Source: an uncultured Pseudomonadales bacterium
GTDB lineage: Bacteria; Patescibacteriota; Microgenomatia; UBA1400; PJMF01
Assembly: GCA_964511345.1 (NCBI GenBank)
Contig: CAZEEV010000001.1
Location: 150,621-214,620, forward strand
Direction of reading: 5' to 3'
DNA length: 64,000 nt
Under the pieces are notes generated by a model that saw nothing but the letters and a program-made list of their open reading frames with translations, did not search any database and was not told where the DNA came from. Both the position numbers and the translations under genes were made by a program. This document shows, one piece after another, positions 1 through 59,153 of this stretch (its first letter is position 1; the number at the start of each line of letters is the position of its first letter).

Positions 1-630
1 ACTTATTTTTTAGCGATTTGCATGCTAATCGACATAATAGGCGAAATTATTATCGCTCTATTTGATAAATCATTTAAGAAAAAACATTTAATTTTGTTTT
101 ATTTATTAGTTGTTTCTCTGGCTCCATCTGTTGTGACTGTCGATAGTCCACACGCTACGCGCAGCTTGTTATTCTTTTTTGTTTTTGTATCCCTAGCTGT
201 TTTATTCTTAGATAAATTAGCCAAAATTTTTGTTAAGCAAAGTAAATTAATTCTTATAGTGTGCTTAGCTATTTTGCTTACAGAAAGTCTTTTCTATTAT
301 CACAAATATTTTTTCAAATATTCTCAGTCACAAGAAAAAATTCTTTTTGCTAGTTTCAAAAAGTTCATTATTGACGCTGATGAAAAATATACCAAGCAAC
401 CTGTGGTAATCATTGACGAAGGTGGTTATCAATATATTTTGACAGCTTGGTATTTAAAAATTCCCAGTCAAAACTTTTTCGCTACTATGAAATATCAGCA
501 AGCAGATCGCATTAATTTTTATTATGGAGAAAGATTACTTAATTATCACTTTATTAAAAATTTAGAAGATCGAAATAACGATGAGAAAGTGGTTCTATCT
601 AAAAATTTAGGCTTAGTTGTTTATGAATAA
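1..630 (+). CDS. 5'-truncated CDS. C-terminal soluble domain of an ArnT/PMT-like (GT39-type) GT-C glycosyltransferase paralog.
   Basis: Frame is open back to window position 1. The C-terminal region resembles the C-termini of ORFs 617..2233 and 10963..12474. Confidence 0.45.
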   Translation, partial: TYFLAICMLIDIIGEIIIALFDKSFKKKHLILFYLLVVSLAPSVVTVDSPHATRSLLFFFVFVSLAVLFLDKLAKIFVKQSKLILIVCLAILLTESLFYYHKYFFKYSQSQEKILFASFKKFIIDADEKYTKQPVVIIDEGGYQYILTAWYLKIPSQNFFATMKYQQADRINFYYGERLLNYHFIKNLEDRNNDEKVVLSKNLGLVVYE

Positions 631-2233
631 AAAGCAAGAGTTTTTACTTTTAGTTTTCATTATTTTAACTGGAGTTTTTTTACGCTTTTTTCAATTTGCT
701 GCTAATCCAGCTTCTTTGTATTGGGATGAGACAGCAATTGCTTTGGATGCTCGCAGTATTGCTGAAACAGGCAAAGATATTAATGGCGAGAATTGGTTAC
801 AACCAATTCTGATTTCTTATGGTGATTTTAAAGCCCCAATATTGATTTGGCTAGCCAGTTTATCAGTCAAAATTTTCGGCATGAATGCCTTTGCCGTACG
901 TTTACCAGTTGCTTTATTTTCTGTGTTTAGTATCTATCTTGTTTATTTATTGATCAAAGAGTTACTTAATTTTAGCGATACTTTGACAAGACGTTATAAA
1001 TTACTGCCGATTTTGACGGCTTTTATCCTGTCGATTTCTCCCTGGTCGGTACATTTTGGCCGTATTGCCTTCGAATCTAGCCTTTCAATGAGTTTTTTAT
1101 TAATTGCCTTGCTATTTTTTGTCAAAGCAATTAAAAACAAAGGTTATTATTTTTTGATTAGTACTGTGTTCGCTGTTTTAGCAACTTATACTTATTATTC
1201 GTTGCGTGTAATCGTACCCCTACTTTGCTTAAGTTTAGTTATTTTGTTTTTCAAACAAATTAAGGTTAAAAAATTCTGGTTAGTAGCTTCAATGACTTTT
1301 TTTGTTTTAGGGATGTTGCCAATTTTAAAATCTCCTTATTACGCGGTTAGTCAGAGCTATCGTTTAAATAATAATAATCTAATTAATCATCAGCAAGCAA
1401 TTGAGGAATCAAGTAAATATTTAGAAAAATATCATTCGAGCTTGTTTTCTAGAATAATTTACCATCGTTATATTTTTGTTGCGCGTGATTTTATGATTAA
1501 TATGGGCGCTCATTTCACTCCCAACTTTTTATTTTTTAAGGGAGATACCAACTTGCGCCATCACTCTGGATTTTCTGGAGAATTTTTTGTAGTAACTTCA
1601 CCATTCTTCTTAATAGGGCTTTTTTTGTTATTAAAAAACTTCAAAAGCAAGTTGACGATATTCCTTCTATTTTTTATGTTTTTATCACCAATTCCAGCAG
1701 CCATGGTTTATGAGGTGCCACATGCATCGAGAGCAATTTATTTAGTAATTCCTTTTTCTGTCTTAATTGCCTGGGGTATTAATGAGTGTTTTTTACTTAA
1801 GAAAAAAATAATTTCACTTATAATTGTTTTAGCGTTTTTAGTTAATGCAATTATTTTTTATACAGATTATTTTACTAATTATGTAAAGAGATCTAGCGAA
1901 GCATGGCTTTATAGCTATAACCAAGTAGCTTCATACATTAAAGATCATTATCAGGAATTTTCTAAGCTAGAAATTAGCGAACATTATTGGTTTCCCAATA
2001 TCTTTGTTTATTATCAATTTCCAGAGTTATTGAATCAAAGAAGTAAAACCATTGGCTTTGGTTTGGAAGATCCTTTCGCACTTTTACTCGATCAAAATGA
2101 TTCGAATAAAGAACGAGGGAAATTTATTTACTATAAAGATGCTATCCCAGAGGGGTTCGTCGCTACTCAGAATTTTAATTTCTTGAATGGAGAACCCAGT
2201 TTGATTCTAGTGATTAAAGAAAATAATTTATGA
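617..2233 (+). CDS. GT-C fold glycosyltransferase, family 39-like (ArnT/PMT-type, polyprenyl-phosphate-sugar dependent)
   Basis: 538 aa, many TM helices. N-terminal loop carries 'YWDETAIA' (the GT-C DE motif) and an 'RLPVALFSV...' helix typical of ArnT-like enzymes. Confidence 0.8.
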   Translation: MFMNKKQEFLLLVFIILTGVFLRFFQFAANPASLYWDETAIALDARSIAETGKDINGENWLQPILISYGDFKAPILIWLASLSVKIFGMNAFAVRLPVALFSVFSIYLVYLLIKELLNFSDTLTRRYKLLPILTAFILSISPWSVHFGRIAFESSLSMSFLLIALLFFVKAIKNKGYYFLISTVFAVLATYTYYSLRVIVPLLCLSLVILFFKQIKVKKFWLVASMTFFVLGMLPILKSPYYAVSQSYRLNNNNLINHQQAIEESSKYLEKYHSSLFSRIIYHRYIFVARDFMINMGAHFTPNFLFFKGDTNLRHHSGFSGEFFVVTSPFFLIGLFLLLKNFKSKLTIFLLFFMFLSPIPAAMVYEVPHASRAIYLVIPFSVLIAWGINECFLLKKKIISLIIVLAFLVNAIIFYTDYFTNYVKRSSEAWLYSYNQVASYIKDHYQEFSKLEISEHYWFPNIFVYYQFPELLNQRSKTIGFGLEDPFALLLDQNDSNKERGKFIYYKDAIPEGFVATQNFNFLNGEPSLILVIKENNL

Positions 2234-3864
2234 AAAAATTTATAAAAATCATTTTTTTTGTTTTATTGACCTTAATTAACTGTCGTTACTTTTTTCATTT
2301 AGGTGTACCCATTACTCATGATGGTAATAATCATTTAGTACGTTTTGCTAATTACAAAATAGCAGTCAGAGAATTGCAAATTCCGCCACGCATTGCTCCA
2401 AATTTAGTTAATAGATATGGTTATCCAGTATTTAATTATAATTACCCATTAGCTAATATTTTATCTTTGCCATTTTCAATTGCTCACTTTAATTATGAAT
2501 TCACTTTTAAAATTATTACATCAGGCTTTGTCTTTTTAGCTTTAATTGGAGCTAATTTATTTTTAAGAGCTAAAAATTTTTCAAGAGGTTCTAGAATTTT
2601 TGCCTTGTTTGTTTTGGCTTTAAATCCATATATTTTTACGAGCATTATTTTCAGAGGCAATATTGGTGAAGTTATGGCTTGGGGTATTTTACCCTGGATT
2701 TTTTATTATTTAGAAAAAATTAAATTTAGTAAAAAATTTTTTAGTAAAGATTTCTTTTTATTAACCTTATTTATGTTAGCGCTATTTTTAGCGCACAATA
2801 TCATGGCTTTTTTTGCTAGCATTTTGTTGATTTTTTATTTAATTTTCAATTATTGGAATAATTGGCAATTTATCAAGAAGTTTGCTTTGAGCTTTATTTG
2901 GTCTTTTGTCTGTACTCTATGGTTCTGGTTACCAGCAATTATGGAAAAGGGTTTGGTTATTCTAGATAATGTGGATTTAACCCTTAATTACACGCAACAT
3001 TTTCTAAGCTTCAATCAGCTATTGCGTTTACCGATTGAATTTGGTTATTCATATTGGGGACAAGTTGATTCAATGTCACTTGGGCTTGGTGCCATACAAA
3101 TTTTACTTATTTTAGCTGCCATAGTTTACTTATTTAAGAAAAAACCTAGAGAAAATCTGGTTTTCTTCATTGCTTTGTTTGTTTTGTTAATCGCTCAACT
3201 TGGCTTTTCTAAACCACTTTATGATTTAATTCCCTTTGCCAACTTTATTCAATTTCCTTGGCGTTTGGCTCTTTTGATTTCTATAGTTTTGCTACCAGTT
3301 TCAGCCTTGGTTTTTACTTATCTGAAAAAACCAGTTAAATTTGTATTTGTTTTGGTGGTTTTTCTGCAATTAATACAGTTTCTACAAGTTAAACCAATCG
3401 ATTATCAGCATCAAACAAACATTGATTATGAAACTTATGGAGGTATTACATCTGTTAACCAAGAAAATATGCCACGGCTATTTACTTTTGAGTATTTTAC
3501 TGAGAGACCAGCGTCAGTTTTCATTTTAAATGGTAAAGGACAAATCAATATTAAAAACTTCAATGGTTCTTCTCGTTATTACTCATTAAGTCTAGAGGAA
3601 AAATCAACAATTGTTGAGTCGACAGCCTATTTCCCAGGTTGGGAAACAAAAGTTAATAATCAAAAAATAACTTATTTAGACAACGACATAATTAAAGGTA
3701 GAATTGCTTATGATTTGGAACCGGGAAACTATGAAGTAGTAACACGTTTCACTCAAAGGACTTGGCCCAGATTAGTTGGTAATAGCGTTAGCGCTTTGAG
3801 CTTACTTGCGCTTTTTTCTTTGGGTTTTTATCTTTGGCAAAAGGATAGAAAAAATAAAGGCTAA
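2230..3864 (+). CDS. polytopic membrane protein, GT-C-like glycosyltransferase of an uncharacterised family
   Basis: 544 aa with more than 10 TM segments. N-terminal 'HDGNNHLVRFANYK...RYGYPVFNYNYPLANI' region is paralogous to ORF 3788..5551. Start overlaps upstream stop by 4 nt (operon-like). Confidence 0.5.
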   Translation: MKKFIKIIFFVLLTLINCRYFFHLGVPITHDGNNHLVRFANYKIAVRELQIPPRIAPNLVNRYGYPVFNYNYPLANILSLPFSIAHFNYEFTFKIITSGFVFLALIGANLFLRAKNFSRGSRIFALFVLALNPYIFTSIIFRGNIGEVMAWGILPWIFYYLEKIKFSKKFFSKDFFLLTLFMLALFLAHNIMAFFASILLIFYLIFNYWNNWQFIKKFALSFIWSFVCTLWFWLPAIMEKGLVILDNVDLTLNYTQHFLSFNQLLRLPIEFGYSYWGQVDSMSLGLGAIQILLILAAIVYLFKKKPRENLVFFIALFVLLIAQLGFSKPLYDLIPFANFIQFPWRLALLISIVLLPVSALVFTYLKKPVKFVFVLVVFLQLIQFLQVKPIDYQHQTNIDYETYGGITSVNQENMPRLFTFEYFTERPASVFILNGKGQINIKNFNGSSRYYSLSLEEKSTIVESTAYFPGWETKVNNQKITYLDNDIIKGRIAYDLEPGNYEVVTRFTQRTWPRLVGNSVSALSLLALFSLGFYLWQKDRKNKG

Positions 3865-5551
3865 TAAATAAAGCCAAAGCAGAAATCGAGTCACCTAATT
3901 TGCGAGCTAGAGTATTTTCAGTAAAGTAAATTCCTACTTTATGCTGTCCAGCAGGAACACTAATTTGGATGTTGCCAAGCTCCTGATTAGTATCAATTTG
4001 CCATTTCTCACCATCTAGTTCAGCTTGCCAACCAGCAAAATTAGCAACCTTAAAATTCAAAGTTTCTGCCTTAAAGAAATCAGTAGAAACTAACTTTTCG
4101 AAACCGCGATCAACAAGCAAAGTTGCTTTACCATCCGATTGAATATCTGCTAACCAAAAAGTGCCTAATGCCTGATTTTTAGCTAAAAGCGTTTTTTCTT
4201 CAGCCATTTGAGTAGGAATGTAGTCTGGCAAAGTTTCGCTCATGTGATTCTGAATTCTAACGGCATCTGTATAGTAAAGAGCATTAGCATCATCCAAATA
4301 TCCCTTCGGTTTGAAATAAATAGCATTGCTTAATAAAAAGAGAAATAAAAACACCCCATATAAAAACTTTATTTTTTTATTCTTTATCAGATAAATTGAT
4401 AGCGCCACTAAGAGAGCAAGGAACAAAGAAGCCATAGACATGAAGCGCCAAGGAAATTGAATATACTGTAAAAGTTTAATACTATCCCAGACTAATTTAC
4501 TTTTTAAAATGCTCATAAAAAGACTTAGTAGAAGTAAACTAGAAAAAACTGAAATGTAAAAAAATAATTGATTTCTAATAAAAGTTTTACGATTTTTGAT
4601 CAAGTGATATAAAGCAGCCAAACCTAAAACTACCAAACTCAGTAATTGGCCTTTACCTAAGAAAAAAGAAAAGCCATCATTGGGGCCCCAAGCTGAACCA
4701 CCTTCGTATTGCCAGCGATCCAGGAAAAATTGTCTGATGTAAAGAAAGTGGTGAGAATAATGGAAATAGCCAGAGAAAATTTTATTAATAATAGTTAAAT
4801 CTTTTTCCATAAAAGCTGGAATCATATAAAACGCTGACAAGCCCATTGCTAAGAAAAACTGGCTAGCAATGATCCAAAGTAACTTGATCTTTTTCTGGTA
4901 TAGAAGATAAACAAAAGTAAAAAGAGCCGCCAACGGAATAAACATCATGGCAGTTAAATTATGTGATAAAACAATGGCAAATAAGGCTAGAGACAACAAT
5001 AATAAATATTTTTTATTTTGATTTTTAACATAGGCGACAATAGCAAAAAGTACTAATGGCAAAAAAGCCATGGCAAAAACTTCACTAAAAGCTCCTCTAA
5101 CAAAAAGATTCACTGCCCGATAAGGAGCTAAAGTATAAGCAGCAGCTAAAAGTAATCCACCAAAACGACCCAACATTTTTTTACCGAGCAGGTAAGCACC
5201 TATTAAAGTTACTAGATTAATTAATAAACCTAAAATTTTAAGACTAGCAATTACACTAAAACCCATTTTGAAAAAGATAGCTCCCACAAAATAAGGCAGT
5301 GGTGCATAAAAATTAAATAATGGCATACCGAAGCCATAGCCAAAATTCTCACTCCATCTAACTGGTAGTTGCCCCTCATCTAGAGCATGAGCCATTTCGG
5401 CAATTCTGGCAGCATGAGTAAAATCGTGTACATGAAAAAAACTAGGGTGAAAAAAAGAATAACTACTCAAAACAAAAACTAAAACTAAAGCAAAAGCAAC
5501 AAAATAGTTTTTTAAAAAATTAACTAAAAATTGCCAAATTTTATTTATCAT
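3788..5551 (-). CDS. polytopic membrane protein, GT-C-like glycosyltransferase paralogous to 2230..3864
   Basis: 587 aa. 'HDFTHAARIAEM...RWSENFGYGFGMPLFNFYAPLPYF' aligns with the N-terminal loop of the neighbouring plus-strand gene. 3' ends converge and overlap by 77 nt. Confidence 0.5.
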   Translation of the reverse strand: MINKIWQFLVNFLKNYFVAFALVLVFVLSSYSFFHPSFFHVHDFTHAARIAEMAHALDEGQLPVRWSENFGYGFGMPLFNFYAPLPYFVGAIFFKMGFSVIASLKILGLLINLVTLIGAYLLGKKMLGRFGGLLLAAAYTLAPYRAVNLFVRGAFSEVFAMAFLPLVLFAIVAYVKNQNKKYLLLLSLALFAIVLSHNLTAMMFIPLAALFTFVYLLYQKKIKLLWIIASQFFLAMGLSAFYMIPAFMEKDLTIINKIFSGYFHYSHHFLYIRQFFLDRWQYEGGSAWGPNDGFSFFLGKGQLLSLVVLGLAALYHLIKNRKTFIRNQLFFYISVFSSLLLLSLFMSILKSKLVWDSIKLLQYIQFPWRFMSMASLFLALLVALSIYLIKNKKIKFLYGVFLFLFLLSNAIYFKPKGYLDDANALYYTDAVRIQNHMSETLPDYIPTQMAEEKTLLAKNQALGTFWLADIQSDGKATLLVDRGFEKLVSTDFFKAETLNFKVANFAGWQAELDGEKWQIDTNQELGNIQISVPAGQHKVGIYFTENTLARKLGDSISALALFISLYFFYPFAKDKNPKKKAQVSSKR

Positions 5552-5553: not shown

Positions 5554-6285
5554 CTAATTAGATTTTAAAGAAGAAAACTTAATATTTAAATATGTAGTTA
5601 AAGCTTCATAACAAGCCTTGACGATTACCTTGAATTGAGCTCCAGTGGCTTGACCATAAAGGCGTGGATAATGATTAACGGCGACTTCTTTAAATTTAAT
5701 ACCTCTCTTTTTTAATCGATAAAGAATTTCTGCGCTAGTGAAAGCACTGCCTGATGTGAGATGTAGATTTTTTAAAGCCGAGGTCTTAAATAATTTGAAG
5801 GCGCAATCAATATCTCTAACGTGTAAACGAAAAAGAAGGTCAATATACAACTTAAAAATACTAGTATTAATATGTCTTCTTAAACCTTCCGATCTTTTTT
5901 TTCGATAACCGATAATAGCTTCGTATTTATTGGTTTCTTGCACAAAACGAACTAATTCAGATAAATCAAACTGTAGATCGCTGTCAGTCCAGAATATCCA
6001 TTCATATTGGCTATTTTTAATACCAGTTTTAAGCACTTCACCATAGCCTCTATTATATTTATGAGAAAAAATTTTAACTTGTTGATATTCGCTTCTCAAA
6101 TTTTTAGCAATTTTAAGACTGTCATCAGTACTGCCATCATTAATAATCAGCAATTCATATCTGGAAGCCAAAGTAGGAATAATTCTAACTGCCTGTTTAA
6201 TGAGAATTTCCAAATTAGCCTCTTCGTTATAGACAGGAAAAAAAACAGAGAGAGACTTAAGTTTTTTCATGACAGCTGTTATCAT
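5554..6285 (-). CDS. GT2 glycosyltransferase, DPM1/GtrB-like polyprenol-phosphate sugar synthase
   Basis: 'VFFPVYNEE...LLIINDGSTDDS' DxD-type GT-A N-terminus and 'NRGYG' motif. About 240 aa. Confidence 0.7.
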   Translation of the reverse strand: MITAVMKKLKSLSVFFPVYNEEANLEILIKQAVRIIPTLASRYELLIINDGSTDDSLKIAKNLRSEYQQVKIFSHKYNRGYGEVLKTGIKNSQYEWIFWTDSDLQFDLSELVRFVQETNKYEAIIGYRKKRSEGLRRHINTSIFKLYIDLLFRLHVRDIDCAFKLFKTSALKNLHLTSGSAFTSAEILYRLKKRGIKFKEVAVNHYPRLYGQATGAQFKVIVKACYEALTTYLNIKFSSLKSN

Positions 6286-6320: not shown

Positions 6321-7253
6321 TTGTTTATTATGTCCATTTCAGCAGTAGTAATCGCCAAGAACGCCGAAAAAATTATTCAGAGAAGCTTAAAGTCTGTGCA
6401 ATTTGCCGATGAGGTAATTTTGGTCGATATTAAGAGCACTGATCAAACCGCTGAAATTGCAAAAAAACACTGCACTAAGGTTTGCAATTATGGTCAGGAT
6501 TCCGCTTTTGTGGAGCCAGTACGCAATTTTGCTCTGTCTCAGGCTAAAAAAGACTGGATCTTAGTTTTGGATGCTGATGAAGAAATTCCCGAATCATTGG
6601 CCAAAAAATTGCAAGAAATTGATCAAAAAAATCTAGGAGATGTCTATTATTTGCCACGAAAAAATATGGTTAGCGGAACTTGGATGCAGCACACCGGTTG
6701 GTGGCCTGATTATCAGTTGCGTTTTTTCAAAAACGGCTTGGTTACTTGGGGAAATAAAATTCATGGACAAGCACAAGTGGCAGATGGATACAAAGCTAGT
6801 GTATTAGAAGCTACAGAGGAAATGGCAATCTTACATCACAATTATCAAGATACTAAAGATTATTTATTGCGTTTCGATCGCTACACAGACATTGAGGCTG
6901 AACAAAAATCCCATGAATTAGCTGATCAGTTTTCTATTTCGCAATCAGCTTTATTAAAAGCTTTTAGCGATGACTGGCTGAGAAGATACTTTGCTCGGGA
7001 AGGTTATAAAGATGGCGTACGTGGATTTTATTTAAGTTTAATGCAAGCCGTTTATCAAATGACTGTTCAAATGAAAATTTTTGATCGTTTGGCTAATAAA
7101 AAAACTTTAGAAAAGAATGAACAACAAGATTTAATTAAGGATTTGCGTCACTTTCAAAAAGAGTTAAACTACTGGATAGGAGATCTGGAAATCAAGCAGA
7201 AAAAAGGCCTAAGTCGCTTTTGGGTGAGTTTAAAAAGAAAGCTTAGTTTATGA
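6321..7253 (+). CDS. GT2 family glycosyltransferase
   Basis: 'SAVVIAKNAEKIIQRSL...VDIKSTDQTAEIA' GT-A N-terminal signature. Paralogous to 8175..9002 and 14229..15014. Confidence 0.7.
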   Translation: MFIMSISAVVIAKNAEKIIQRSLKSVQFADEVILVDIKSTDQTAEIAKKHCTKVCNYGQDSAFVEPVRNFALSQAKKDWILVLDADEEIPESLAKKLQEIDQKNLGDVYYLPRKNMVSGTWMQHTGWWPDYQLRFFKNGLVTWGNKIHGQAQVADGYKASVLEATEEMAILHHNYQDTKDYLLRFDRYTDIEAEQKSHELADQFSISQSALLKAFSDDWLRRYFAREGYKDGVRGFYLSLMQAVYQMTVQMKIFDRLANKKTLEKNEQQDLIKDLRHFQKELNYWIGDLEIKQKKGLSRFWVSLKRKLSL

Positions 7254-8173: not shown

Positions 8174-8174
8174 T

Positions 8175-10959: not shown

Positions 10960-10962
10960 AAA

Positions 10963-12474: not shown

Positions 12475-12482
12475 TAAACTTC

Positions 12483-44409: not shown

Positions 44410-44413
44410 ATCA

Positions 44414-51011: not shown

Positions 51012-52207
51012 AGATATTAATGCTTACGCCTTATTTGCCATACCCACTTTTATCTGGTGGGCAAATTCGTACCTACAATCTTCTCAAGAAACTAAGTAAC
51101 AAACACCAAATTACTTTGTTTGCTTTGATTAAAAATGAGGAAGAAAAGCAATATGTCAGTGAATTGGAAAAATATTGCCATAAAGTCAGAGTTTTTAAAC
51201 GCAGTGAAAAACCTTTTACTCTCAAGAATATTTTTAAAACTGCGTTTTCTGGTTTTCCTTTTCTAGTGATCCGCAATCAAGCTGAAGGTAGTTTGGAAGC
51301 TATCAAAAAAGAAATTGCCAAAGAAAATTATGATTTAATTCATGCTGAAACTTTTTACATGATGCCTCATATTCCTGAGTGTCAAATTCCTATTATTTTA
51401 GTGGAACAGACCATTGAATATTTGGGCTATGAAAGTTATGCCAAAAAGGCACCTCTTCTCTTAAAACCTCTACTTAATGCTGATGTTAAAAAGATTCATC
51501 TTTGGGAGAAACATTACTGGCAGAAAGCGGATCGCTTAATCGTTATGAGCGAAGAAGATCGCCAATTTATTGCCAAAGATCTGGATAAAGAAAAAATCGA
51601 TGTAGTTGCCAATGGCGTTGATACCAAATGGTTTGCTGAAAAAAAACGCCAATTAGCTAATCGACCAACTATTTTATCTGTAGGAACTTTTAAATGGCTG
51701 CCTAATATCGAAGCCGTAGATTTTTTAGTCAATCAAGTTTGGCCTTTAATTAAAAAAGCCGTGGCTAATGCTAATTTGTTAATTGTTGGTAATGCTCCTA
51801 CCGAAAAAGTTATTTCTTATGGTAAAAGTGATCCACAAATCACCGTTGCTGGCCGAGTAGAGGATATTCGCGACGCTTTTGGCAGCGCCCATGTTTTATT
51901 AGCCCCGGTATTTAGTGGTAAAGGCACTCGTTATAAAATTTTGGAGGCCATGGCCAGCGGCACTCCAGTGGTAGCTAGTAAAATCGCTGTTGAAGGTTTA
52001 AATATCACTGACGGTGTTCATCTCTTGACTAGCAACAAAGCTACTGATCTGGCAGATTTGACAGTTCGAGTACTTAATGATAAAAATCTCTGGCAGAAAC
52101 TTTCCAAAAACGGCAAAGAATTTGTAGCCAAAAATTATGATTGGGAATTAATTTCTCAAAAGTTAGACAGAATTTATCAGGAAATAGGAAATTATGCAAA
52201 AAAGTAA
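51008..52207 (+). CDS. GT4 (GT-B fold) glycosyltransferase
   Basis: 'GKGTRYKILEAMASGTPVVAS'. Confidence 0.8.
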   Translation: MKILMLTPYLPYPLLSGGQIRTYNLLKKLSNKHQITLFALIKNEEEKQYVSELEKYCHKVRVFKRSEKPFTLKNIFKTAFSGFPFLVIRNQAEGSLEAIKKEIAKENYDLIHAETFYMMPHIPECQIPIILVEQTIEYLGYESYAKKAPLLLKPLLNADVKKIHLWEKHYWQKADRLIVMSEEDRQFIAKDLDKEKIDVVANGVDTKWFAEKKRQLANRPTILSVGTFKWLPNIEAVDFLVNQVWPLIKKAVANANLLIVGNAPTEKVISYGKSDPQITVAGRVEDIRDAFGSAHVLLAPVFSGKGTRYKILEAMASGTPVVASKIAVEGLNITDGVHLLTSNKATDLADLTVRVLNDKNLWQKLSKNGKEFVAKNYDWELISQKLDRIYQEIGNYAKK

Positions 52208-53084
52208 GACTAAAATAGATTTGAGCATTATCGTTCTAAATTATAATGGCCAATTTTGGCTCAAAAAGCTTTTACCCACCCTCAAAAAAAACTACATGGA
52301 TAAGAGTAAATACCAAGTGGAGCTAATTGTTGTTGATAACGATAGCACCGACGATAGCGTTAAGCTCATGCGTCGCGATTTTAAGTGGGCAACGACTATT
52401 GAGTCTGGTCGCAATGGCGGCTTTGCCTTCGGTAATAACGTTGCCATTAAAGGAAATAATGCTCGTTACGTGATGTTATTAAATAGCGACACTGAATTTT
52501 TACCAAATGGCCAATCCGATCTTGATCAAATCATTGATTTTATGGACCAAAATACCGACGTTGGCATGGTATCACCTCGAGTTGAATTAAGTGATGGCAG
52601 CCTCGATCCAGCTTCCCACCGCGGCGAACCTACTCCTTGGGCAAGTTTAGCTTATTTATTGGGTTTAGAAAAGTTATTCCCCAAATGCAAACTTTTTGCC
52701 GGCTATCACCAAAGTTACAAAGATTTAAATACTATCCATGAAGTTGATGCCTGCACTGGTGCAGCCATGGTAGTACGCAATGGCGCTATCAAAAAAATCG
52801 GTATGCTCGATGAAATTTTCTTTATGTACGCTGAAGATTTGGATTGGTGCAAACGCTTTCGCGATGCTAACTATCGCATTGTCTTTTATCCAAGAATTAA
52901 AATTATTCATCATAAATACAAATCAGGAATTAAAAGCAGTAATAAAAAAACCGCTTCAATTACTCAGCAGTATTTTTACAAAACTATGCTGCAATATTAC
53001 GATAAACATTACAAAGATAAATACCCTAAATTCTTGAGGGGAATTGTCAAATATTTTGTTTTGATTAAAACAGATGGTCGCTAA
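52194..53084 (+). CDS. GT2 family glycosyltransferase
   Basis: 'LSIIVLNYNGQ...VVDNDSTDDS', 'NSDT' and 'EDLDW'. Confidence 0.75.
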   Translation: MQKSKTKIDLSIIVLNYNGQFWLKKLLPTLKKNYMDKSKYQVELIVVDNDSTDDSVKLMRRDFKWATTIESGRNGGFAFGNNVAIKGNNARYVMLLNSDTEFLPNGQSDLDQIIDFMDQNTDVGMVSPRVELSDGSLDPASHRGEPTPWASLAYLLGLEKLFPKCKLFAGYHQSYKDLNTIHEVDACTGAAMVVRNGAIKKIGMLDEIFFMYAEDLDWCKRFRDANYRIVFYPRIKIIHHKYKSGIKSSNKKTASITQQYFYKTMLQYYDKHYKDKYPKFLRGIVKYFVLIKTDGR

Positions 53085-54219
53085 AAAAACTTATACTATC
53101 GGTATTGATGCACGCTTATCTGGTGAAAAGCATGCTGGCATTGGTCGTTATAGTGAAAATTTAATTAGACGATTGATCAAACTCGGCTTGGAACAACAAA
53201 AAAAACTACCAATTAAATTTGTTTTATTTTTTTTCGATGCGCAGCAAGCCAAAGAAGTGTTGGGTGAATTTTATGAAGTCAATAATATTGAAATAGTTAT
53301 TGCTCGTATTAAGCACTATGGTTTTGCAGAACAGCTTTGCTTGCCAAAAATCTATCGTCGAGCCAAATTGGATTTACTTTATGTTCCTCATTGGAATGTT
53401 CCAGTTTTCTATCGAGGTAAATTAGCGATCACTATTCATGACCTACTTTGGCATGAACAAAAAGGTACTCAGGCCACTACATTAAAGGCCTGGCAATATT
53501 ATTTTAAGTATCTGGCTTATCGATACATCAGTAAAAAAATCGCTCAAAAAGCTCAAGTTATTTTCGTTCCTGCTGAAACAATTAAAAAAACCGTGAGCAA
53601 CTATTATCCTTTTGCAAAAAACAAGATTATTGTCAGTAAAGAGGGTTTAGCCAATGCTTACGAATTTGTTTTGCAAACAGATTCTTCAATTAATCATCAC
53701 ATTAAAAAACAATTAATTTATACTGGCTCTCTCTATCCTCATAAAAATCTTAAGGTCGTTATTAAAAGTCTCAGTAAAATTCCCAAGTACAAACTCCTTA
53801 TCGCTTCTTCTAGAAATATTTTTCAAGACCAAATTCAAGCTTTGGTATCACGCTATAAGGTTAAAAAGCAAGTAGTTTTCTTGGGGTTTGTAAACGATAA
53901 AAAGCTTTTATCTATTTATCAAGAGTCCATGGCTTTAGTTCAGCCATCTTTTTCTGAAGGTTTTGGTTTAACCGGCATTGAAGCTATGGCTAGTCGTTTA
54001 CCAGTTTTAGCTTCAGATATCAAAATTTTTAGAGAAATTTATCAAGATGCGGCTTTCTTCTTTGACCCTAATTCTTGTGAGGATTTTCTCAAAGCACTCA
54101 GTGAACTAGAAATTGCTAATAGAAAAACAATTGTTGAACGAGGTCTTAGAATCGCCAAACAATACAGTTTTGACAAGATGGCTCAAGAAATTTGGACAGA
54201 GCTACTTAAGCAATTATGA
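53074..54219 (+). CDS. GT4 (GT-B fold) glycosyltransferase
   Basis: 'FSEGFGLTGIEAMASRLPVLAS'. Confidence 0.75.
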   Translation: MVAKKTYTIGIDARLSGEKHAGIGRYSENLIRRLIKLGLEQQKKLPIKFVLFFFDAQQAKEVLGEFYEVNNIEIVIARIKHYGFAEQLCLPKIYRRAKLDLLYVPHWNVPVFYRGKLAITIHDLLWHEQKGTQATTLKAWQYYFKYLAYRYISKKIAQKAQVIFVPAETIKKTVSNYYPFAKNKIIVSKEGLANAYEFVLQTDSSINHHIKKQLIYTGSLYPHKNLKVVIKSLSKIPKYKLLIASSRNIFQDQIQALVSRYKVKKQVVFLGFVNDKKLLSIYQESMALVQPSFSEGFGLTGIEAMASRLPVLASDIKIFREIYQDAAFFFDPNSCEDFLKALSELEIANRKTIVERGLRIAKQYSFDKMAQEIWTELLKQL

Positions 54220-55382
54220 AAAGTCGCGTCGCTCTTATTTATGATCGCGCCAATACTGCTTACGGTGGAGCAGAGCAAGTGCTTTTAGCCATTCAAAAAA
54301 TTTATCCTGAAGTCACACTTTTTAGTTCCGTCTATAATCCTCAAAAAGCCAAGTGGACTAAAAAATTTAAAGAAGTCAAAACTTCTTTTTTACAAAAAAT
54401 TCCCTTTACTTCTGCACTGCATCGCTATTTAGCAGCACTCATGCCTCTTGCTTTCGAAAATTTAAATTTAGCTGAATATGACATCATCATTTCTGTCACT
54501 AGCGCTGAAGCCAAAGGTGTCATTACCAGAAGAGATCAATTGCATCTCTGTTATTTACTCAGTCCTCCACGCTATCTTTATCATTATCAAGATGAATATT
54601 TAAAACAAAATCAATTATTGCAGTTACCACTTATCAATTCTTTAGCCAAAGGTGCTTTAAATTATTTGAAAAAATGGGATCAAATGGCTATTTATCGTCC
54701 TGATCTCATTATCCCTATTGCGCAAATTGTTAAAGAAAGAGCAAAAAAATATTATCCTCAAGTTAAATTAGAAAAAGTCATTTATCCACCAATTAATACT
54801 ACTTTAATTAATTATCAAGATAAAACTTCCGTGTCTATGATAGATGGCGATTATTTTCTTGTAGTCAGTCGCCTAGTGCCATATAAAAACATTGTATCTG
54901 CAATTCTGGCTTGTCAAAAATTAGGTAAAAAATTAGTGATTGTGGGGGAAGGACCAGAGGAAAAGCATTTGCGTAATCTAGCTAATCAACTAATTATTTT
55001 TAAGAAAAAAGTAAGCAATAAAACATTAGCTAATTTATATCAACACTGTCTGGCAGTATTGAGTCCTGGTCTTGATGATTTCGGCATTATCGCTTTGGAA
55101 GCCAATTTATTTGGCAAACCCGTAATTATTAATCAATTAGCTGGCGCAGCCGAACTGATCACTGACAAAATTCATGGACTACACTTACCCTATCAGGCCG
55201 ATAATTCTGTGGAAGAGATCAGCTTTAATCTGGTAAAAAAGATTCAACAATTACCAAAGATCAATTTTGAAGTCGAAACACTACGCAAAAATGCGCTAAA
55301 ATATGATACAAATGAATTTGTCCTTAATTTCGGTTCTGCCGTCAACAAAGCTTACCAAGAAAAAAAAGAGGGAAAATTATGA
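54216..55382 (+). CDS. GT4-like (GT-B fold) glycosyltransferase
   Basis: 'YGGAEQVL' N-terminus and a C-terminal GT-B Rossmann domain ('GIIALEANLFGKPVII'). Confidence 0.65.
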   Translation: MKSRVALIYDRANTAYGGAEQVLLAIQKIYPEVTLFSSVYNPQKAKWTKKFKEVKTSFLQKIPFTSALHRYLAALMPLAFENLNLAEYDIIISVTSAEAKGVITRRDQLHLCYLLSPPRYLYHYQDEYLKQNQLLQLPLINSLAKGALNYLKKWDQMAIYRPDLIIPIAQIVKERAKKYYPQVKLEKVIYPPINTTLINYQDKTSVSMIDGDYFLVVSRLVPYKNIVSAILACQKLGKKLVIVGEGPEEKHLRNLANQLIIFKKKVSNKTLANLYQHCLAVLSPGLDDFGIIALEANLFGKPVIINQLAGAAELITDKIHGLHLPYQADNSVEEISFNLVKKIQQLPKINFEVETLRKNALKYDTNEFVLNFGSAVNKAYQEKKEGKL

Positions 55383-56482
55383 TCGATAAAAAACAAATTT
55401 ATGCCGTCTTGTTAGCCGGAGGTGGAGGAACCAGGCTTTGGCCCAAATCGAGAACTAAAACTCCTAAACAATTTCTCAAATTAACTGGTCCACAAACCAT
55501 GATGCAAATTGCTGCTGCTCGTATCAATAAAGTAGTAGATTGGGAAAATATTATTGTAGTAACCAATCAACTTTATTTTGAAGAAGTCAAAAAGCAACTT
55601 CCTGAAATTAAAGTTGAGAACATCATTGCTGAACCAGAAAAACGCGATACTGCTGCTGCTATGTTAATCGGAGCGCTTTATGCTAAAAGCAAAAATGAAA
55701 ACGCAGTAGTTATTAACGCTGCTTCAGATCACATTGTTGATAATATGTCCGAGTTTATTAAGGTCATGAATGCGGCTGTGGAAACAGCTGCAGAGAACCC
55801 TTATCTGGTAACTGTCGGCATTACACCTGCGTATCCTACTAGTGCCTTCGGTTACATCAAAGTTGGTCATGATATTAAAAAAATCAAACGTGACTTAACA
55901 CTTTTTCAAGTGGATAGTTTTACTGAAAAACCAAATTTAGCCACTGCCATTGCTTTCATTTCCACTGGGGCATATTTTTGGAATGCCAATATGTATGTTT
56001 GGTCAGCCAAAGAACTTAAAAGTGCCTTTGCTAAGTTTATGCCTGATATGTTAGCGCTATGCAAGGACTTGGATAAACTTAACAGTAAAGAATTCCATCA
56101 GGCCTTGCCTAAAGTTTATAAAGAAATTGAAAGCATTTCTATTGATTATGCCATTAGTGAAAAGGCTGATAATCTTGTTCTCATACCTGGGGATTTTGGT
56201 TGGAATGACGTTGGCGACTGGAAAGTAGTTTATGACCTAGGTAAAAAAGATTTATCTGGTAATGTCATGCTTGGTGATAAAAAAGAAATTCATGCCTTGT
56301 CCATCAATTCTCACCGCAATCTAATCCACGCTGATGGACGTCTGGTAGCAATTTGTGGAATTGATGATTTAATAGTCATTGATACTGACGAAATTTTAAT
56401 GATTTGTCCCAAAAATAAAAGTCAGGACGTCAAGAAAATGGTCGAACGTCTCAAAGAAGAAAATAAAAAAGAATATTTATAA
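55379..56482 (+). CDS. manC: mannose-1-phosphate guanylyltransferase (GDP-mannose pyrophosphorylase)
   Basis: 'YAVLLAGGGGTRLWPKSRTKTPKQFL' nucleotidyltransferase signature. 367 aa. Confidence 0.8.
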   Translation: MIDKKQIYAVLLAGGGGTRLWPKSRTKTPKQFLKLTGPQTMMQIAAARINKVVDWENIIVVTNQLYFEEVKKQLPEIKVENIIAEPEKRDTAAAMLIGALYAKSKNENAVVINAASDHIVDNMSEFIKVMNAAVETAAENPYLVTVGITPAYPTSAFGYIKVGHDIKKIKRDLTLFQVDSFTEKPNLATAIAFISTGAYFWNANMYVWSAKELKSAFAKFMPDMLALCKDLDKLNSKEFHQALPKVYKEIESISIDYAISEKADNLVLIPGDFGWNDVGDWKVVYDLGKKDLSGNVMLGDKKEIHALSINSHRNLIHADGRLVAICGIDDLIVIDTDEILMICPKNKSQDVKKMVERLKEENKKEYL

Positions 56483-56485: not shown

Positions 56486-57112
56486 ATGTCTTACGATCAA
56501 AAAAAGAGAATTTTGGACCTATTTGTAGCAATTATTCTTATCATTGCTTTTTTGCCCTTTTGGATCTTAATTCCCATATTAATTTTTTTCGACTCTGGTT
56601 GGCCAGTTATTTTTACCCATAAAAGAGTCGGCAAGAATGGCATCGATTTTGAACTATATAAATTTCGTTCGATGGTTCTTAATGCTGATGAGATTTTGCA
56701 CCAAAAAAATCATAAGCTGCTCAGACAATTTAAAAATGGCGATTGGAAAATTGCCGCTAAAGATGACCCTCGTATTACTCCACTTGGAAGATTTTTGCGA
56801 TCTCTCACCATTGACGAATTTCCTCAACTATTTAATGTCCTAAAAGGACAAATGAGTATGGTTGGTCCCAGGGCTTATGTGCGTAAAGAGCTAGAAGAAC
56901 AAAGCAAAAAATATCCAGAAACTAAAAAATATATTCCCCATATCTTATCTGTGAAGCCTGGCATTACCGGTCCTTGGCAAACTAGCGGGCGCAACGAGAT
57001 TCCTTTTGTTCAGAGAGCCGCAATGGATTCTGAATATGCAGAAAATAAAAACATTACTCAAGATATATTGATTCTTTTGCGCACTCCCAAAGCCATGTTG
57101 TCAAAGTGGTAG
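56486..57112 (+). CDS. initiating polyprenyl-phosphate sugar-phosphate transferase (bacterial sugar transferase, PglC/WbaP C-terminal-domain type)
   Basis: Single N-terminal re-entrant helix, 'LYKFRSM', 'DDPRITPLGRFLRSLTIDEFPQLFNVLKGQMSMVGPR'. Confidence 0.85.
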   Translation: MSYDQKKRILDLFVAIILIIAFLPFWILIPILIFFDSGWPVIFTHKRVGKNGIDFELYKFRSMVLNADEILHQKNHKLLRQFKNGDWKIAAKDDPRITPLGRFLRSLTIDEFPQLFNVLKGQMSMVGPRAYVRKELEEQSKKYPETKKYIPHILSVKPGITGPWQTSGRNEIPFVQRAAMDSEYAENKNITQDILILLRTPKAMLSKW

Positions 57113-57146
57113 TTCTCTTAATTTGAATCTGCTATACTAAATTTCT

Positions 57147-59153
57147 ATGGATAATATTTTGCCCGATAATGAACAGGAAGTAAAAATAGAAAATTTATTT
57201 CCCACAAAAGAACCCGTGATTACTACTACAAGTAAAACCACTCCTACTAAAAAAAAGAAAAGAGTTGTTTTAAAGAAATGGCAAAAGGTTGTTTTCATTT
57301 TAGCCTTAGTTTTCTTAGTTTCATTAACTAGCCTGGCTAGCTACACTGTTTTCATCGCTAAAGAAATAAAACAACATGCCGATGAATTAATTCCGATAGC
57401 GTCTGAGGCCAAGGCTCTTCTCGCAAGTCAAAACATTATGGCTTTACCAGAAAAAGTCGCTCAGCTTAAAACTGGCAAAGAACAAGTTTACACAAGTTAC
57501 CAAAAATTAGCTTTTTATGGCAAAATTCCTTTTTTGAAACAATATTATCTTGATGGCGAAAAACTTTTCCAAGCAGCAGATTATGGTATTAGCGTTGCAG
57601 AAAAAGGTCTTAATGCTCTTATTCCTTATGCTGATATCTTAGGCTTTCAAGGAGAAGGTTCTTTCACTGGTGGTACAACTCAAGATCGTATTGTTTTGAT
57701 TTTGGCAACACTTAAAGAAATTCAACCAACAATAGATGAAATTGAACAAGAAATACACACTTTATCTGGTCTAATCAATGAAATTAATCCAGGCAGATAT
57801 CCTCAAAAAATTAAAGATCAAGAAATTAGAAACAAAATTATTGAAATTCAAAAAACCGCTAATATAGCCAGTCAAACTTTTTCTGACTATAAACCAGTCA
57901 TTGCTTCTTTAGGTAAAATGGCTGGAGCAGATGAACCGCAAAAATATCTGGTTTTATTCCAAAATGATAATGAATTGCGTCCCACCGGTGGTTTCTTGAC
58001 TGCCTACGCCATCATTACTGTTGACAAAGGTGTGGTTAATTCTGAAAAGTCAGATGACATTTATGAGTTAGACCAGAAATTCAATAAGAGAATTGCCATT
58101 CCTGACGTCTTGGGTAAATATCTTACTACTGAGAAGTATTATCATCTGCGTGATATGAATATTTCCCCAGACTTCAAAGCTTCGATGGAAGAATTTTATA
58201 CCAATTATTCCACTGTTAGAGGAGAACCAGATGATTTAGACGGCATCATCGCCGTAGATACTCATATTTTAAGTGAATTACTTAAAGTCATTGGTCCTGT
58301 AGAAGCTCCAGGATACGGTGTTTTCTCAGCTGAAAATGATATTCGCTGCGATTGCCCTCAAGTGGTTTATGCGCTATCAGAAATTATTACTAAACCCACT
58401 CCTTATATGCGTGAAGATCGTAAGGGTGTTTTAGGGCCGCTGATGAAGGCTGTGCTGGCTAAAACTTTCGATCTCGATAAAGCTAGATTTCCGGAACTTT
58501 TTGCAATCGCCATGAGTGGTATTGAGGGCCGTCATCTCCAAATGTATTTTATGGATGAAACTACTCAAATGGCTACTGAACAAATTAATGCAGGTGGCAG
58601 ACTTTACGAACTCAAAGACAATCTTAAAGGTTGGCAAATGGGTAACAACATGGACTTTTTGGCGATTGTCGACGCTAATTTAGGTGGTGCCAAATCAAAT
58701 TTATTTACCAACTATGAAGTTAAACAAACCATCAGTGCTCCAGTGGATGGTCGTTTAGAAAAAACTGTCGAAATTACTTATAAAAACACTCGTAAAGCAG
58801 ATAACTGTAACCTAGAAGCTGGAAAATTATGCCTGAATGCCACTCTTAACGATTGGGTCAGAATTTATGTGCCAGCTGGTACAGAACTCATTGATATTCA
58901 GGGAATTAGTAACGAAGCCAGTGTTTATGATGAAGCTAATCTAACAGTGATTGATGGCTATTTCAGTTTGGAACCAATGGGTTTGGCGAAAATCAAACTC
59001 ACTTATTCCATACCTTATACAGAAACCGTCAATTACAATTTCAGGATGTGGAAACAGGGTGGTATCGATGCTGTACCAGTCCTAATCGACGTCACCGGTG
59101 GAGAAGAACAACTACTTCTTAGCAAAGATCTAGACTACAGTACTGTTTTTTAA
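57147..59153 (+). CDS. membrane-anchored DUF4012-like extracytoplasmic protein
   Basis: 668 aa, single N-terminal TM. 'YLVLFQNDNELRPTGGFLTAYAII' conserved core. Confidence 0.45.
   Translation: MDNILPDNEQEVKIENLFPTKEPVITTTSKTTPTKKKKRVVLKKWQKVVFILALVFLVSLTSLASYTVFIAKEIKQHADELIPIASEAKALLASQNIMALPEKVAQLKTGKEQVYTSYQKLAFYGKIPFLKQYYLDGEKLFQAADYGISVAEKGLNALIPYADILGFQGEGSFTGGTTQDRIVLILATLKEIQPTIDEIEQEIHTLSGLINEINPGRYPQKIKDQEIRNKIIEIQKTANIASQTFSDYKPVIASLGKMAGADEPQKYLVLFQNDNELRPTGGFLTAYAIITVDKGVVNSEKSDDIYELDQKFNKRIAIPDVLGKYLTTEKYYHLRDMNISPDFKASMEEFYTNYSTVRGEPDDLDGIIAVDTHILSELLKVIGPVEAPGYGVFSAENDIRCDCPQVVYALSEIITKPTPYMREDRKGVLGPLMKAVLAKTFDLDKARFPELFAIAMSGIEGRHLQMYFMDETTQMATEQINAGGRLYELKDNLKGWQMGNNMDFLAIVDANLGGAKSNLFTNYEVKQTISAPVDGRLEKTVEITYKNTRKADNCNLEAGKLCLNATLNDWVRIYVPAGTELIDIQGISNEASVYDEANLTVIDGYFSLEPMGLAKIKLTYSIPYTETVNYNFRMWKQGGIDAVPVLIDVTGGEEQLLLSKDLDYSTVF

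Follow-up and report, generated by a model that had tools for sequence, protein, structure and literature searches.

A glycosyltransferase supercluster rich in GT-C(A) enzymes in a Microgenomates-group bacterium, and its probable role in building envelope glycopolymers

The dual-chain rhamnose-rich cell wall polysaccharide and polysaccharide pellicle (Rha-CWPS/PSP) system of Lactococcus and the streptococci combines ATP-binding cassette (ABC) export by RgpCD, the Wzx flippase WpsG, the polymerase WpsI, WpsH, the GT-C ligase WpsJ, three-component decoration by CsdAB/CflA and anchoring by LytR-CpsA-Psr (LCP) proteins (PMC9574508). Three- and multi-component transmembrane glycosylation is also known from the GtrA/B/V, ArnC-ArnE/F-ArnT and CsbB-GtcA-YfhO systems (PMC8035078, PMC11127046), and glycosyltransferases (GTs) of the GT-C(A) fold use lipid-phosphate donors at the trans face of the membrane, in three- and multi-component systems as in dual-chain CWPS assembly (PMC8035078, PMC9574508, PMC10920833). 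The present analysis concerns a 64,000-nt stretch of contig CAZEEV010000001.1 (positions 150,621 to 214,620 of the forward strand), hereafter called the window, which carries a supercluster of glycan genes that includes ten GT-C(A) genes. This supercluster probably builds conserved cell-envelope glycopolymers by a hybrid route, the components of which were observed and the steps, sugars and acceptor of which are inferred. The host is a Microgenomates-group (Pacebacteria-like) bacterium of the candidate phyla radiation (CPR), its genome being probably below ~1 Mb. A related complete genome, CP011212.1, measures 853 kb, orthologues of the arginyl-tRNA synthetase (ArgRS) are 90%, 84% and 75% identical in metagenome-assembled genomes, CP011212.1 among them, and the named homologues of the GT-C proteins come from Pacebacteria, Shapiro-, Collier-, Woese-, Beckwith- and Chisholmbacteria. 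The GC content of the window is low (0.28-0.40) and its genes are packed very tightly, with frequent 4-nt overlaps; neither tRNA genes nor matches to Rfam families were found anywhere in it.

All GT counts and base-coverage figures refer to window positions 1-59153. Within this span GTs make up 32 of the 56 genes and cover 61% of the bases, the GT-C(A) genes alone covering 24% (Table 1); a preliminary description made from the sequence alone had counted about 32 GTs, and Pfam, fold and homologue evidence confirms this census, provided that a Wzy_C-domain protein is included as GT-C(B) after the classification in PMC10920833. The set comprises ten GT-C(A) genes, the Wzy_C/GT-C(B) gene, 11 GT2 genes, eight GT4 genes, one GT-A/coiled-coil/GT4 fusion and one frameshifted GT8 gene. 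Pfam recovered 11 stand-alone GT2 genes, the number proposed earlier. Against 11 proposed GT-C enzymes stand ten GT-C(A) genes, of which the left window edge truncates one, and the Wzy_C protein, a GT-C(B) in the broad classification; against nine proposed GT4 enzymes stand eight separate GT4 genes and the 732-aa GT-A/GT4 fusion, and the single GT8 is present but split into two open reading frames (ORFs) at a T8 run. The Pfam scan, which covered all window ORFs of at least 100 aa, found five PMT_2-type proteins above the cutoff, two of them with an additional GT87 or PMT match. The remaining glycan genes encode a phosphoglycosyltransferase (PGT), a Wzx flippase, a Wzm/Wzt exporter, a 115-aa EamA-half protein of the small multidrug resistance (SMR) or ArnE/F-like kind, a full EamA transporter, a hexapeptide acetyltransferase, the UDP-galactopyranose mutase Glf, ManC, a DUF4012 protein and three epimerases/dehydratases of the short-chain dehydrogenase/reductase (SDR) type, one of them like GDP-fucose synthase; the PGT, Wzx, Wzm/Wzt, SMR/ArnE-F-like protein and acetyltransferase had all been named before and were verified. 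Interspersed with them are ArgRS, RuvC/A/B, RecO, a class II aminoacyl-tRNA synthetase (aaRS), MraZ/MraW and two NYN-domain proteins.

The GT-C fold was assigned by fold searches and AlphaFold2 (AF2) models, chosen since PDB sequence searches and hhalign were indecisive. Each of the nine complete GT-C(A) candidates has 6-13 predicted hydrophobic segments, the AF2 models are multi-helix bundles, and the transmembrane (TM) core of the models resembles that of solved GT-C enzymes. All nine carry an acidic motif in the first extracytoplasmic loop, behind TM1 (WDE, LDE, HD..H..R, FDGVHY, NDIGRD, WDSMTYH or RQADT), and family alignments give D47/D51 as near-invariant or invariant in family A1 and D31 as invariant in family A2. 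No match to PDB sequences was obtained by phmmer/hmmsearch with four PMT_2-type proteins as single queries (617-2233, 27561-29378, 39586-41046 and 49557-51011) or with the profiles A1 and A2, and phmmer with the same four proteins found no solved protein O-mannosyltransferase (PMT) at E<=0.1; the suggested kinship to solved PMT, ArnT, Emb and Aft enzymes is thus undetectable by sequence with these queries and profiles. Local hhalign of shallow family alignments produced weak links among the GT-C families (probabilities of 23-72%, against at most ~1% for the Wzx, EamA and Wzy_C controls), which are suggestive, not decisive. The possibility that the unannotated polytopic proteins are transporters was rejected, as the products of 2230-3864 and 18147-19589 are GT-C by fold and that of 16053-17201 was assigned through homologues that carry the GT-C-clan Pfam domains PF04188, PF13231 or PF09594 and are named Gpi18-like mannosyltransferases; no polytopic protein counted as GT-C proved to be a transporter.

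Some of these genes are visibly related to one another. The truncated gene at 1-630 has no stop codon in positions 1-21 and its ORF runs off the window edge; its product is 71% identical to residues 304-512 of a full-length 512-aa PMT_2 protein in a close relative (L065) and matches aa 340-450 of the product of 617-2233, which is in turn a paralogue of that of 10963-12474 (E 1e-42). The product of 3788-5551 shows additional weak PMT_2 and GT-C_AftD matches. In general, GT-C paralogues share at most 33% identity, whereas each shares 60-90% with its own orthologues in closer relatives, which is consistent with old paralogues of distinct, long-maintained specificities; the earlier proposal of a distinct specificity for each GT-C paralogue fits this 1:1 orthology. 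That the GT-C(A) enzymes draw on polyprenyl-phosphate-linked donors on the trans side is suggested circumstantially by the adjacent polyprenyl-phosphate GT2s and the ArnE/F-like flippase.

Actinobacterial and eukaryotic protein O-mannosylation (Ppm1/DPM1 with PMT, GT39) resembles the locus in the PMT_2/PMT Pfam matches, in the DE motif that three of the GT-Cs carry, and in having a DPM1-like GT2 and GDP-mannose supply. It differs in that no sequence match to solved PMTs was found here, and the PMT_2 family is wide enough to include ArnT-like lipid/glycan transferases as well. The PF02366 (PMT) cutoff of 22.7 is passed only by 49557-51011 (35.5 bits, part of the model), which carries RQADT, not DE, and the DE motif occurs in the GT-Cs at 617, 10963 and 39586, which match PMT_2 only.

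The preliminary description had treated the region as a single locus, but it consists of two conserved, tight operon-like modules, one around ArgRS and the other around RuvCAB, joined by a variable low-GC island, with ArgRS, RuvCAB and RecO embedded. Module A extends from before position 1 to ~22.1 kb, in the order GT-C, GT-C, GT-C, GT-C (-), GT2 (-), GT2s, GT4, GT2, GT-C, ArgRS, GT2, GT4, GT-C, SDR, GT-C (-), a 223-aa protein (-) and Glf (-). Its synteny is kept in ~20 independent genomes with ArgRS identity down to ~56%, and partially at 49%, and its GTs are conserved as much as ArgRS or more; in CP011212.1, for example, ArgRS is 75% identical, and the GT2s at 7250 and 10102, Glf and the GT-C at 10963 are 84%, 83%, 91% and 71% identical, respectively. 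The 223-aa protein (19564-20235) is co-conserved in L004, L005 and L006. The genes of module C+D (39.6-59.2 kb) run in the sequence GT-C, GT4, GT4, (RuvCAB), acetyltransferase, (EamA), GT2, Wzy_C, GT-C, GT4, GT2, GT4, GT4, ManC, PGT, DUF4012 and RecO. Among 80 metagenomic loci retrieved with GT-C 49557-51011 as the query, 69 are colinear with it, 15 having all 15 genes and most others ending at a contig edge, while identities fall to 36% (GT-C) and 27% (RecO). The more distant loci lack RuvCAB, with the acetyltransferase directly behind the GT4 at 42184; in these loci a polyprenyl-phosphate GT2 like that at 26833 stands directly upstream of the 39586-type GT-C. The persistence of most of the array in distant relatives points to an undescribed core envelope sugar polymer.

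The embedding of housekeeping genes is tight. ArgRS (12483-14213), RuvC/A/B (43349-45424) and RecO (59159-59695) lie in the GT arrays with overlaps or gaps of at most 15 nt, the co-directional arrays 6321-18145 (12 genes) and 39586-59695 (20 genes) have gaps of at most 34 nt, and the 4-nt overlaps continue through ArgRS, RuvCAB and RecO. The variable island was delimited by L006, in which a single ORF separates Glf from Wzx, the SDR gene and GT-C 39586, so that the 22.2-35.2 kb stretch of the window is missing there. The GC content of the island (0.275-0.33) is the lowest in the window, compared with 0.35-0.40 elsewhere, and it contains Wzm/Wzt, a three-component unit, four further GT genes, the Fcl-like SDR and the split GT8. 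No long DNA repeats flank it, and there is therefore no evidence for an origin from a mobile element. In other Patescibacteria, GT genes that are separate here are fused: 2230-type and 16053-type GT-Cs, whose genes stand 12 kb apart in the window, are joined in six proteins of 917-951 aa (P0292, P0313, P0317, P0321, P0330 and P0354), and the 18147-type GT-C is fused behind one GT2 (783 aa) or two (~1000 aa, up to 1008) in P0061, P0361, P0362 and P0413.

These data bear on an explanation in which there is nothing special about the region, namely that ordinary, independently evolving capsule- or O-antigen-like loci lie side by side in a compact genome and that the GT-C count reflects local paralogue expansion without a shared function. 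Each component does belong to a known enzyme class, and PMT_2 expansions occur in other phyla, but fusions join GT-Cs that are 12 kb apart in the window. The housekeeping genes, which could be taken to separate the blocks, are embedded in them by 4-nt overlaps. The 22-35 kb island acts like a typical variable surface-polysaccharide locus, and L006, which does without it, has modules A and C directly adjoining; capsular polysaccharide (CPS) and O-antigen loci are typically hypervariable, yet modules A and C+D keep their order and 1:1 orthology over deep divergence. The explanation is accordingly considered very improbable, and the earlier view that the region is more than a simple O-antigen cluster is borne out.

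In the hybrid route proposed for the supercluster, nucleotide sugars would be supplied by Glf (UDP-galactofuranose, UDP-Galf), ManC (GDP-Man), the Fcl-like enzyme (probably GDP-Fuc) and the other SDR enzymes, and the small WbaP-type PGT would prime polyprenyl phosphate with the start of the glycan. About 20 soluble GT2, GT4 and GT8 enzymes would lengthen the lipid-linked glycans at the cytoplasmic face, from which these would leave through Wzm/Wzt or Wzx, and the Wzy_C protein would polymerise or ligate them. Two ArnC/DPM1-like GT2s would produce polyprenyl-phosphate-monosaccharides, flipped by the ArnE/F-like protein, and at the outer face such donors would serve the ten GT-C(A) enzymes in the linkage-specific addition of residues or branches. 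The product would be anchored to peptidoglycan by an LCP ligase, the gene for which lies beside the cluster in a close relative. The two modules would form the core, co-transcribed with essential genes, and the 22-35 kb island would be a strain-variable decoration set.

Of the parts of a Wzx/Wzy pathway, the PGT, Wzx and Wzy_C score above their cutoffs (Table 1) and a Wzz chain-length regulator was not found in the window; the Wzm/Wzt pair of an ABC-transporter-dependent pathway adjoins GT genes and likewise follows Glf in another relative (L016). The unit at 26489-29378 consists of the ArnE/F-like protein, a GT2 and a GT-C, encoded in one direction with the first two genes overlapping by 4 nt and the last two separated by 8 nt; by similarity, with no equivalog membership, it has a three-component (Gtr/Arn-type) architecture. 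A second putative polyprenyl-phosphate GT2 (5554-6285) comes closest in NCBIfam to ArnC (residues 6-231) and next to PgfS, Dol-P hexose transferase and PpgS; its gene immediately precedes the co-directional GT-C gene 3788-5551, at a distance of 2 nt. The earlier claim that extracytoplasmic glycosylation with polyprenyl-phosphate donors forms a major part of the system agrees with the ten GT-C(A) enzymes, the two ArnC/AglJ-like GT2s and the ArnE/F-like flippase predicted from sequence. The locus resembles the described three-component systems both in the contiguous 4-TM flippase-like protein, polyprenyl-phosphate GT2 and GT-C of 26489-29378 and in the GT2-GT-C pair at 6285-3788 (-). It differs from them in that the GT2s are soluble proteins of ~240 aa without the C-terminal TM helices of GtrB/ArnC (the catalytic domains of mycobacterial Ppm1 are likewise soluble), in that the matches fall below the curated family cutoffs, and in that GT-Cs far outnumber donor synthases.

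Similarly, the Rha-CWPS systems and this locus share a monoderm host, an ABC exporter, Wzx, a Wzy-like polymerase, GT-C transferases, polyprenyl-phosphate GT2s and an LCP protein (here in a neighbouring genome), as well as a conserved core with a variable decoration region. The differences are that ten GT-C(A) genes are present here and two to four there, that the window has no rmlA, rmlC or demonstrable rhamnan genes and its sugars are likely Galf, Man and Fuc, and that the flippase here is SMR/ArnE-F-like in place of GtrA. In addition, a DUF4012 protein takes the place of a recognisable WpsH/Wzz, the operons here include essential genes, and no sequence orthology is detectable.

Mycobacterial arabinogalactan and lipoarabinomannan (AG/LAM) assembly, with Glf, GlfT1/2, a Wzm/Wzt-like exporter, Ppm1, PimE, Mpt and Emb/Aft, offers a further parallel, in which a cytoplasmic Galf-containing polymer undergoes ABC export and is then extended by multiple lipid-phosphate-sugar GT-Cs; the GT-C count is high in both, and the fold agrees with that of AftA, AftB, AftD and PimE. 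Initiation is by a WbaP-type PGT here and by WecA there, and the present host belongs to another phylum and probably has a genome below ~1 Mb. The 'mycobacterial-style arabinogalactan' of the preliminary description holds as an analogy of logic (Glf, Wzm/Wzt, GT2s and GT-Cs), but only as that, because no decaprenyl-phospho-arabinose (DPA) genes are present; Emb/Aft sequence membership and a DPA pathway are both absent here. A true arabinogalactan homologue was rejected, since the defining Emb/Aft families and the DPA supply (UbiA/DprE) are absent among the 60+ window ORFs. A wider form of the idea is that the cluster makes a membrane-anchored lipoglycan (lipomannan- or lipoarabinomannan-like) or represents the arabinogalactan pathway itself, with cytoplasmic GT4 mannosyltransferases followed by polyprenyl-phosphate-mannose-dependent GT-Cs (PimE/Mpt-like). 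ManC, the many GT4s, the DPM1-like GT2s and the GT87 or PIG-V (Gpi18) similarity of some GT-Cs are in keeping with it, and Glf stands beside Wzm/Wzt, as in galactan synthesis; nevertheless, no Arabinose_trans/Emb match was found, GT-C_AftD stays sub-threshold for 3788-5551 (15.5 bits vs 26), neither DPA-synthesis nor phosphatidylinositol-related genes occur in the window, and the PGT and the neighbouring LCP gene point to a polyprenyl-diphosphate-linked, wall-attached product. Taken with these findings, the lipoglycan or arabinogalactan explanation is quite unlikely.

The glycan genes extend beyond the window, since in L065 (contig CAZWWE010000002.1, 1-10004) the orthologues of the window's genes are preceded on the left by genes for a 549-aa PMT_2-like GT-C (WEE motif, no Pfam match on record), a second Wzx-like flippase, an LCP ligase, two SDRs and then TrmD, and the cluster is therefore larger than the window shows. 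The LCP ligase beside the cluster in this relative favours a wall-linked polysaccharide over protein glycosylation. In the latter case, the PGT and the GT4/GT2 enzymes would make a lipid-linked oligosaccharide that is flipped and then moved en bloc onto S-layer proteins or type IV pilins, with the Wzy_C protein as an O-oligosaccharyltransferase (O-OTase) of the PglL/PilO/WsaB type, and the PMT-like GT-Cs would add single sugars to Ser/Thr from polyprenyl-phosphate-mannose. The Wzy_C domain is common to O-antigen ligases, polymerases and O-OTases, and the Wzy_C protein at 48002-49603 is always paired with GT-C 49557-51011, which it overlaps by 47 nt, the pairing being invariable in relatives; no PglL_A or other O-OTase-specific domain was matched in the window scans. 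The same GT-C exceeds the Pfam PMT cutoff (35.5 vs 22.7), and ManC and DPM1-like GT2s are present, but the four PMT_2-type single queries and profiles A1 and A2 match no solved PMT sequence, and ten GT-Cs exceed the needs of known protein O-mannosylation systems. CPR cells depend on pili, and their pilin glycosylation has been predicted and called unexplored (PMC11623550), which agrees with such a role; on the other hand, the window encodes no candidate acceptor protein, and Wzm/Wzt, Glf, the LCP gene of the neighbouring genome and the CPS association of DUF4012 suit polysaccharide assembly better. The O-glycosylation clusters of Geobacillus and Paenibacillus S-layers contain the PGT WsaP, Wzm/Wzt and the Wzy_C O-OTase WsaB and are not known to have GT-C(A) arrays; the present locus shares with them a WbaP-type PGT, Wzm/Wzt, a Wzy_C protein and a monoderm host, and differs in having no S-layer gene in the window. 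A mainly protein O-glycosylating role was rated as unlikely in view of the ABC exporter, Glf and the neighbouring LCP gene, and since neither a link to characterised PMTs nor an acceptor gene was found.

Several points nonetheless weigh against the hybrid glycopolymer pathway. The LCP gene belongs to the genome of a relative and is not part of the window sequence, and the Wzy_C protein could equally be a protein O-OTase. No Wzz or polysaccharide co-polymerase (PCP) chain-length regulator was found in the window, where the DUF4012 protein is the sole candidate accessory protein. For the polyprenyl-phosphate GT2s and the ArnE/F-like protein, every NCBIfam match stays under its curated cutoff, and their specific functions are therefore assigned by similarity only. 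Two polyprenyl-phosphate GT2s stand against ten GT-Cs in the window, and several GT-Cs may therefore use lipid-diphosphate-oligosaccharides or donors made elsewhere. Finally, the modules may serve separate products and not one pathway.

Table 1. Positions, strands and assignments of window features, with the basis of each assignment
Position	Strand	Assignment	Basis
1-630	+	PMT_2-type GT-C(A), C-terminal 209 aa of a 512-aa protein, cut by window edge	L065 orthologue
617-2233	+	GT-C(A), PMT_2 type, WDE after TM1	PMT_2 44.4 bits vs cutoff 26.1; ~11 TM
2230-3864	+	GT-C(A), PTPS_related type, invariant H30-D31..H35..R38	no own Pfam match; GT-C by fold
3788-5551	-	GT-C(A), PTPS_related	PF10131 45.8 bits vs cutoff 26.4; 10 TM
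5554-6285	-	GT2, putative ArnC/DPM1-like polyprenyl-phosphate GT	Pfam GT2 92 bits
6321-7253	+	GT2	Pfam
7250-8173	+	GT2, weakly similar to rhamnosyltransferase and GlfT1 families	Pfam, NCBIfam
8142-9002	+	GT2	Pfam
8999-10105	+	GT4	Pfam
10102-10959	+	GT2	Pfam
10963-12474	+	GT-C(A), PMT_2 type, WDE motif	PMT_2 48.5 bits
12483-14213	+	ArgRS, module A anchor, no glycosylation gene	Pfam, synteny
14229-15014	+	GT2	Pfam
15004-16056	+	GT4	Pfam
16053-17201	+	GT-C(A), PIG-V/Gpi18-like, FDGVHY motif	no own Pfam match; 8 TM
17189-18145	+	SDR sugar-nucleotide epimerase/dehydratase	Pfam, NCBIfam
18147-19589	-	GT-C(A), NDxGRD invariant, four conserved Cys in C-terminal domain	family without Pfam or PDB sequence relatives
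19564-20235	-	223-aa single-TM protein, no family assigned	3' end overlaps start of GT-C 18147-19589 by 26 nt
21006-22127	-	UDP-galactopyranose mutase (Glf), UDP-Galf supply	GLF 240.8 bits
22921-24478	+	Wzm (ABC-2 permease) and Wzt (ATPase) glycan exporter	ABC2_membrane 58.9, ABC_tran 83.9 bits
24481-25635	-	GT4	Pfam
25635-26393	-	GT2	Pfam
26489-26836	+	115-aa 4-TM SMR/EamA-half protein, ArnE/ArnF-like candidate polyprenyl-phosphate-sugar flippase	EamA match; NCBIfam ArnF 8e-14, ArnE 3e-11
26833-27552	+	GT2, polyprenyl-phosphate GT-like	Pfam GT2 130.8 bits; NCBIfam AglJ 1e-26, Dol-P-hexose transferase, PpgS, ArnC
27561-29378	+	GT-C(A), PMT_2/GT87 type	PMT_2 28.6, GT87 27.4 bits, both above cutoff
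29359-30342	-	GT2	Pfam
30344-32542	-	732-aa fusion: GNT-I-like GT-A, coiled coil (aa ~295-370, ~75 residues), GT4	near Wzm/Wzt
32514-33446	-	GDP-L-fucose synthase-like SDR	NF047922 483.8 bits vs cutoff 500
33596-34398	-	GT8, two overlapping ORFs broken at T8 homopolymer near 34150	Pfam
35199-36470	+	Wzx-type flippase (Polysacc_synt)	41 bits, above cutoff
37864-38916	+	SDR sugar-nucleotide epimerase/dehydratase	Pfam, NCBIfam
39586-41046	+	GT-C(A), PMT_2 type, LDE motif, opens module C+D	PMT_2 35.3 bits
41049-43359	+	two GT4 genes: 41049-42194, 42184-43359	Pfam
45414-46052	+	hexapeptide-repeat acetyltransferase	Pfam
46055-47008	+	10-TM EamA/drug-metabolite transporter (DMT), few relatives have one	Pfam, synteny
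47005-47997	+	GT2	Pfam
48002-49603	+	Wzy_C-domain protein, GT-C(B); polymerase, ligase or O-OTase class	Wzy_C 38.3 bits vs cutoff 31.7; at least 8 TM
49557-51011	+	GT-C(A), PMT_2/PMT type, RQADT motif	PMT_2 50.9, PMT 35.5 bits
51008-55382	+	GT4 51008-52207, GT2 52194-53084, GT4 53074-54219, GT4 54216-55382	Pfam
55379-56482	+	mannose-1-phosphate guanylyltransferase (ManC-like)	Pfam
56486-57112	+	small PGT, initiating enzyme, WbaP catalytic domain only	Bac_transf 196 bits; EPS_sugtrans, WbaP families
57147-59153	+	DUF4012 protein, one N-terminal TM, large extracytoplasmic domain	follows PGT in every relative

Several of the accessory genes merit separate description. The DUF4012 family is enriched in CPR and Gram-positive bacteria, and one member lies in a Bifidobacterium CPS/exopolysaccharide cluster (PMC6744442); the protein may, speculatively, be a candidate accessory or co-polymerase. 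The break in the GT8 gene may be due to a sequencing error, or the gene may be a pseudogene or encode a glycosyltransferase subject to phase variation. Coiled-coil 'molecular ruler' polymerases occur in ABC-transporter-dependent O-antigen pathways, and the architecture of the fusion at 30344-32542 recalls them. An assignment of sugar specificity to the GT2 and GT4 enzymes from NCBIfam was tried and given up, as all matches fall far below the cutoffs. Two paralogous NYN-domain (PIN-like nuclease) proteins, 33% identical, are encoded in inverted orientation at 22234-22830 (+) and 37247-37816 (-), the first at the left end of the island and the second beyond Wzx. Small ORFs at 20508-20954 (+), 34512-34862, 36471-36914 (-), 39159-39488 and 61366-62187 received no family assignment. 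Between RecO and the class II aaRS (59696-59950), a 22-nt palindrome, TTTTGCAATTACATTGCAAAAA, occurs three times (59699, 59833 and 59900) and alternates with three copies of GGGTCCGAAATTCACGCAAGGTATCTTTCGTACC; a 67-nt tandem unit shows 90% identity between copies. This repeat region has no Rfam match and could be a repeated operator, terminator or leader element for the aaRS; the 124-aa ORF that overlaps it (59711-60085) is probably spurious.

The enzyme classes found here are all known, and the novelty lies in how they are arranged and conserved. GT-C(A) enzymes are exceptionally concentrated for a minimal genome, essential genes alternate with two modules of deep conservation, some of the GT-C families are orphans by sequence, and GT-C/GT-C as well as GT2-GT2-GT-C fusions occur naturally. 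Full-text literature searches, which cannot prove absence, yielded no paper tying Patescibacteria/CPR to GT-C enzymes or to such clusters. More tentatively, and at somewhat less than even likelihood, the Microgenomates, and perhaps the wider CPR, may have an undescribed, lineage-defining and probably essential envelope glycopolymer, the assembly of which would depend on an unusually large GT-C set, with at least 11 GT-C(A) enzymes in ~66 kb of a genome that is probably below 1 Mb, including at least two families invisible to sequence searches against solved structures as well as the GT-C/GT-C and GT2-GT2-GT-C fusions.

The CPR/Patescibacteria represent a large share of bacterial diversity and live attached to other cells. 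Almost none of their envelope chemistry has been characterised, and glycosylation in the Saccharibacteria has been called unexplored (PMC11623550). About 36 kb of a genome that is probably below 1 Mb is given to glycosyltransferases here, and this investment, together with the kept order of the 15-gene module across deep divergence and the interleaving with ArgRS, RuvABC and RecO, argues for a product of central importance in the life of these bacteria. The conserved module and two sequence-orphan GT-C families with confidently predicted structures provide testable targets, and the fusion proteins predict which enzymes cooperate. If the tentative reading of a lineage-defining glycopolymer is true, this polymer would fill in ultra-small episymbionts the role that teichoic acids, arabinogalactan or Rha-CWPS have elsewhere, and it would be a prime candidate mediator of host attachment and phage recognition. 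The variable island probably sets the strain-specific surface structure and may therefore determine phage or host specificity.

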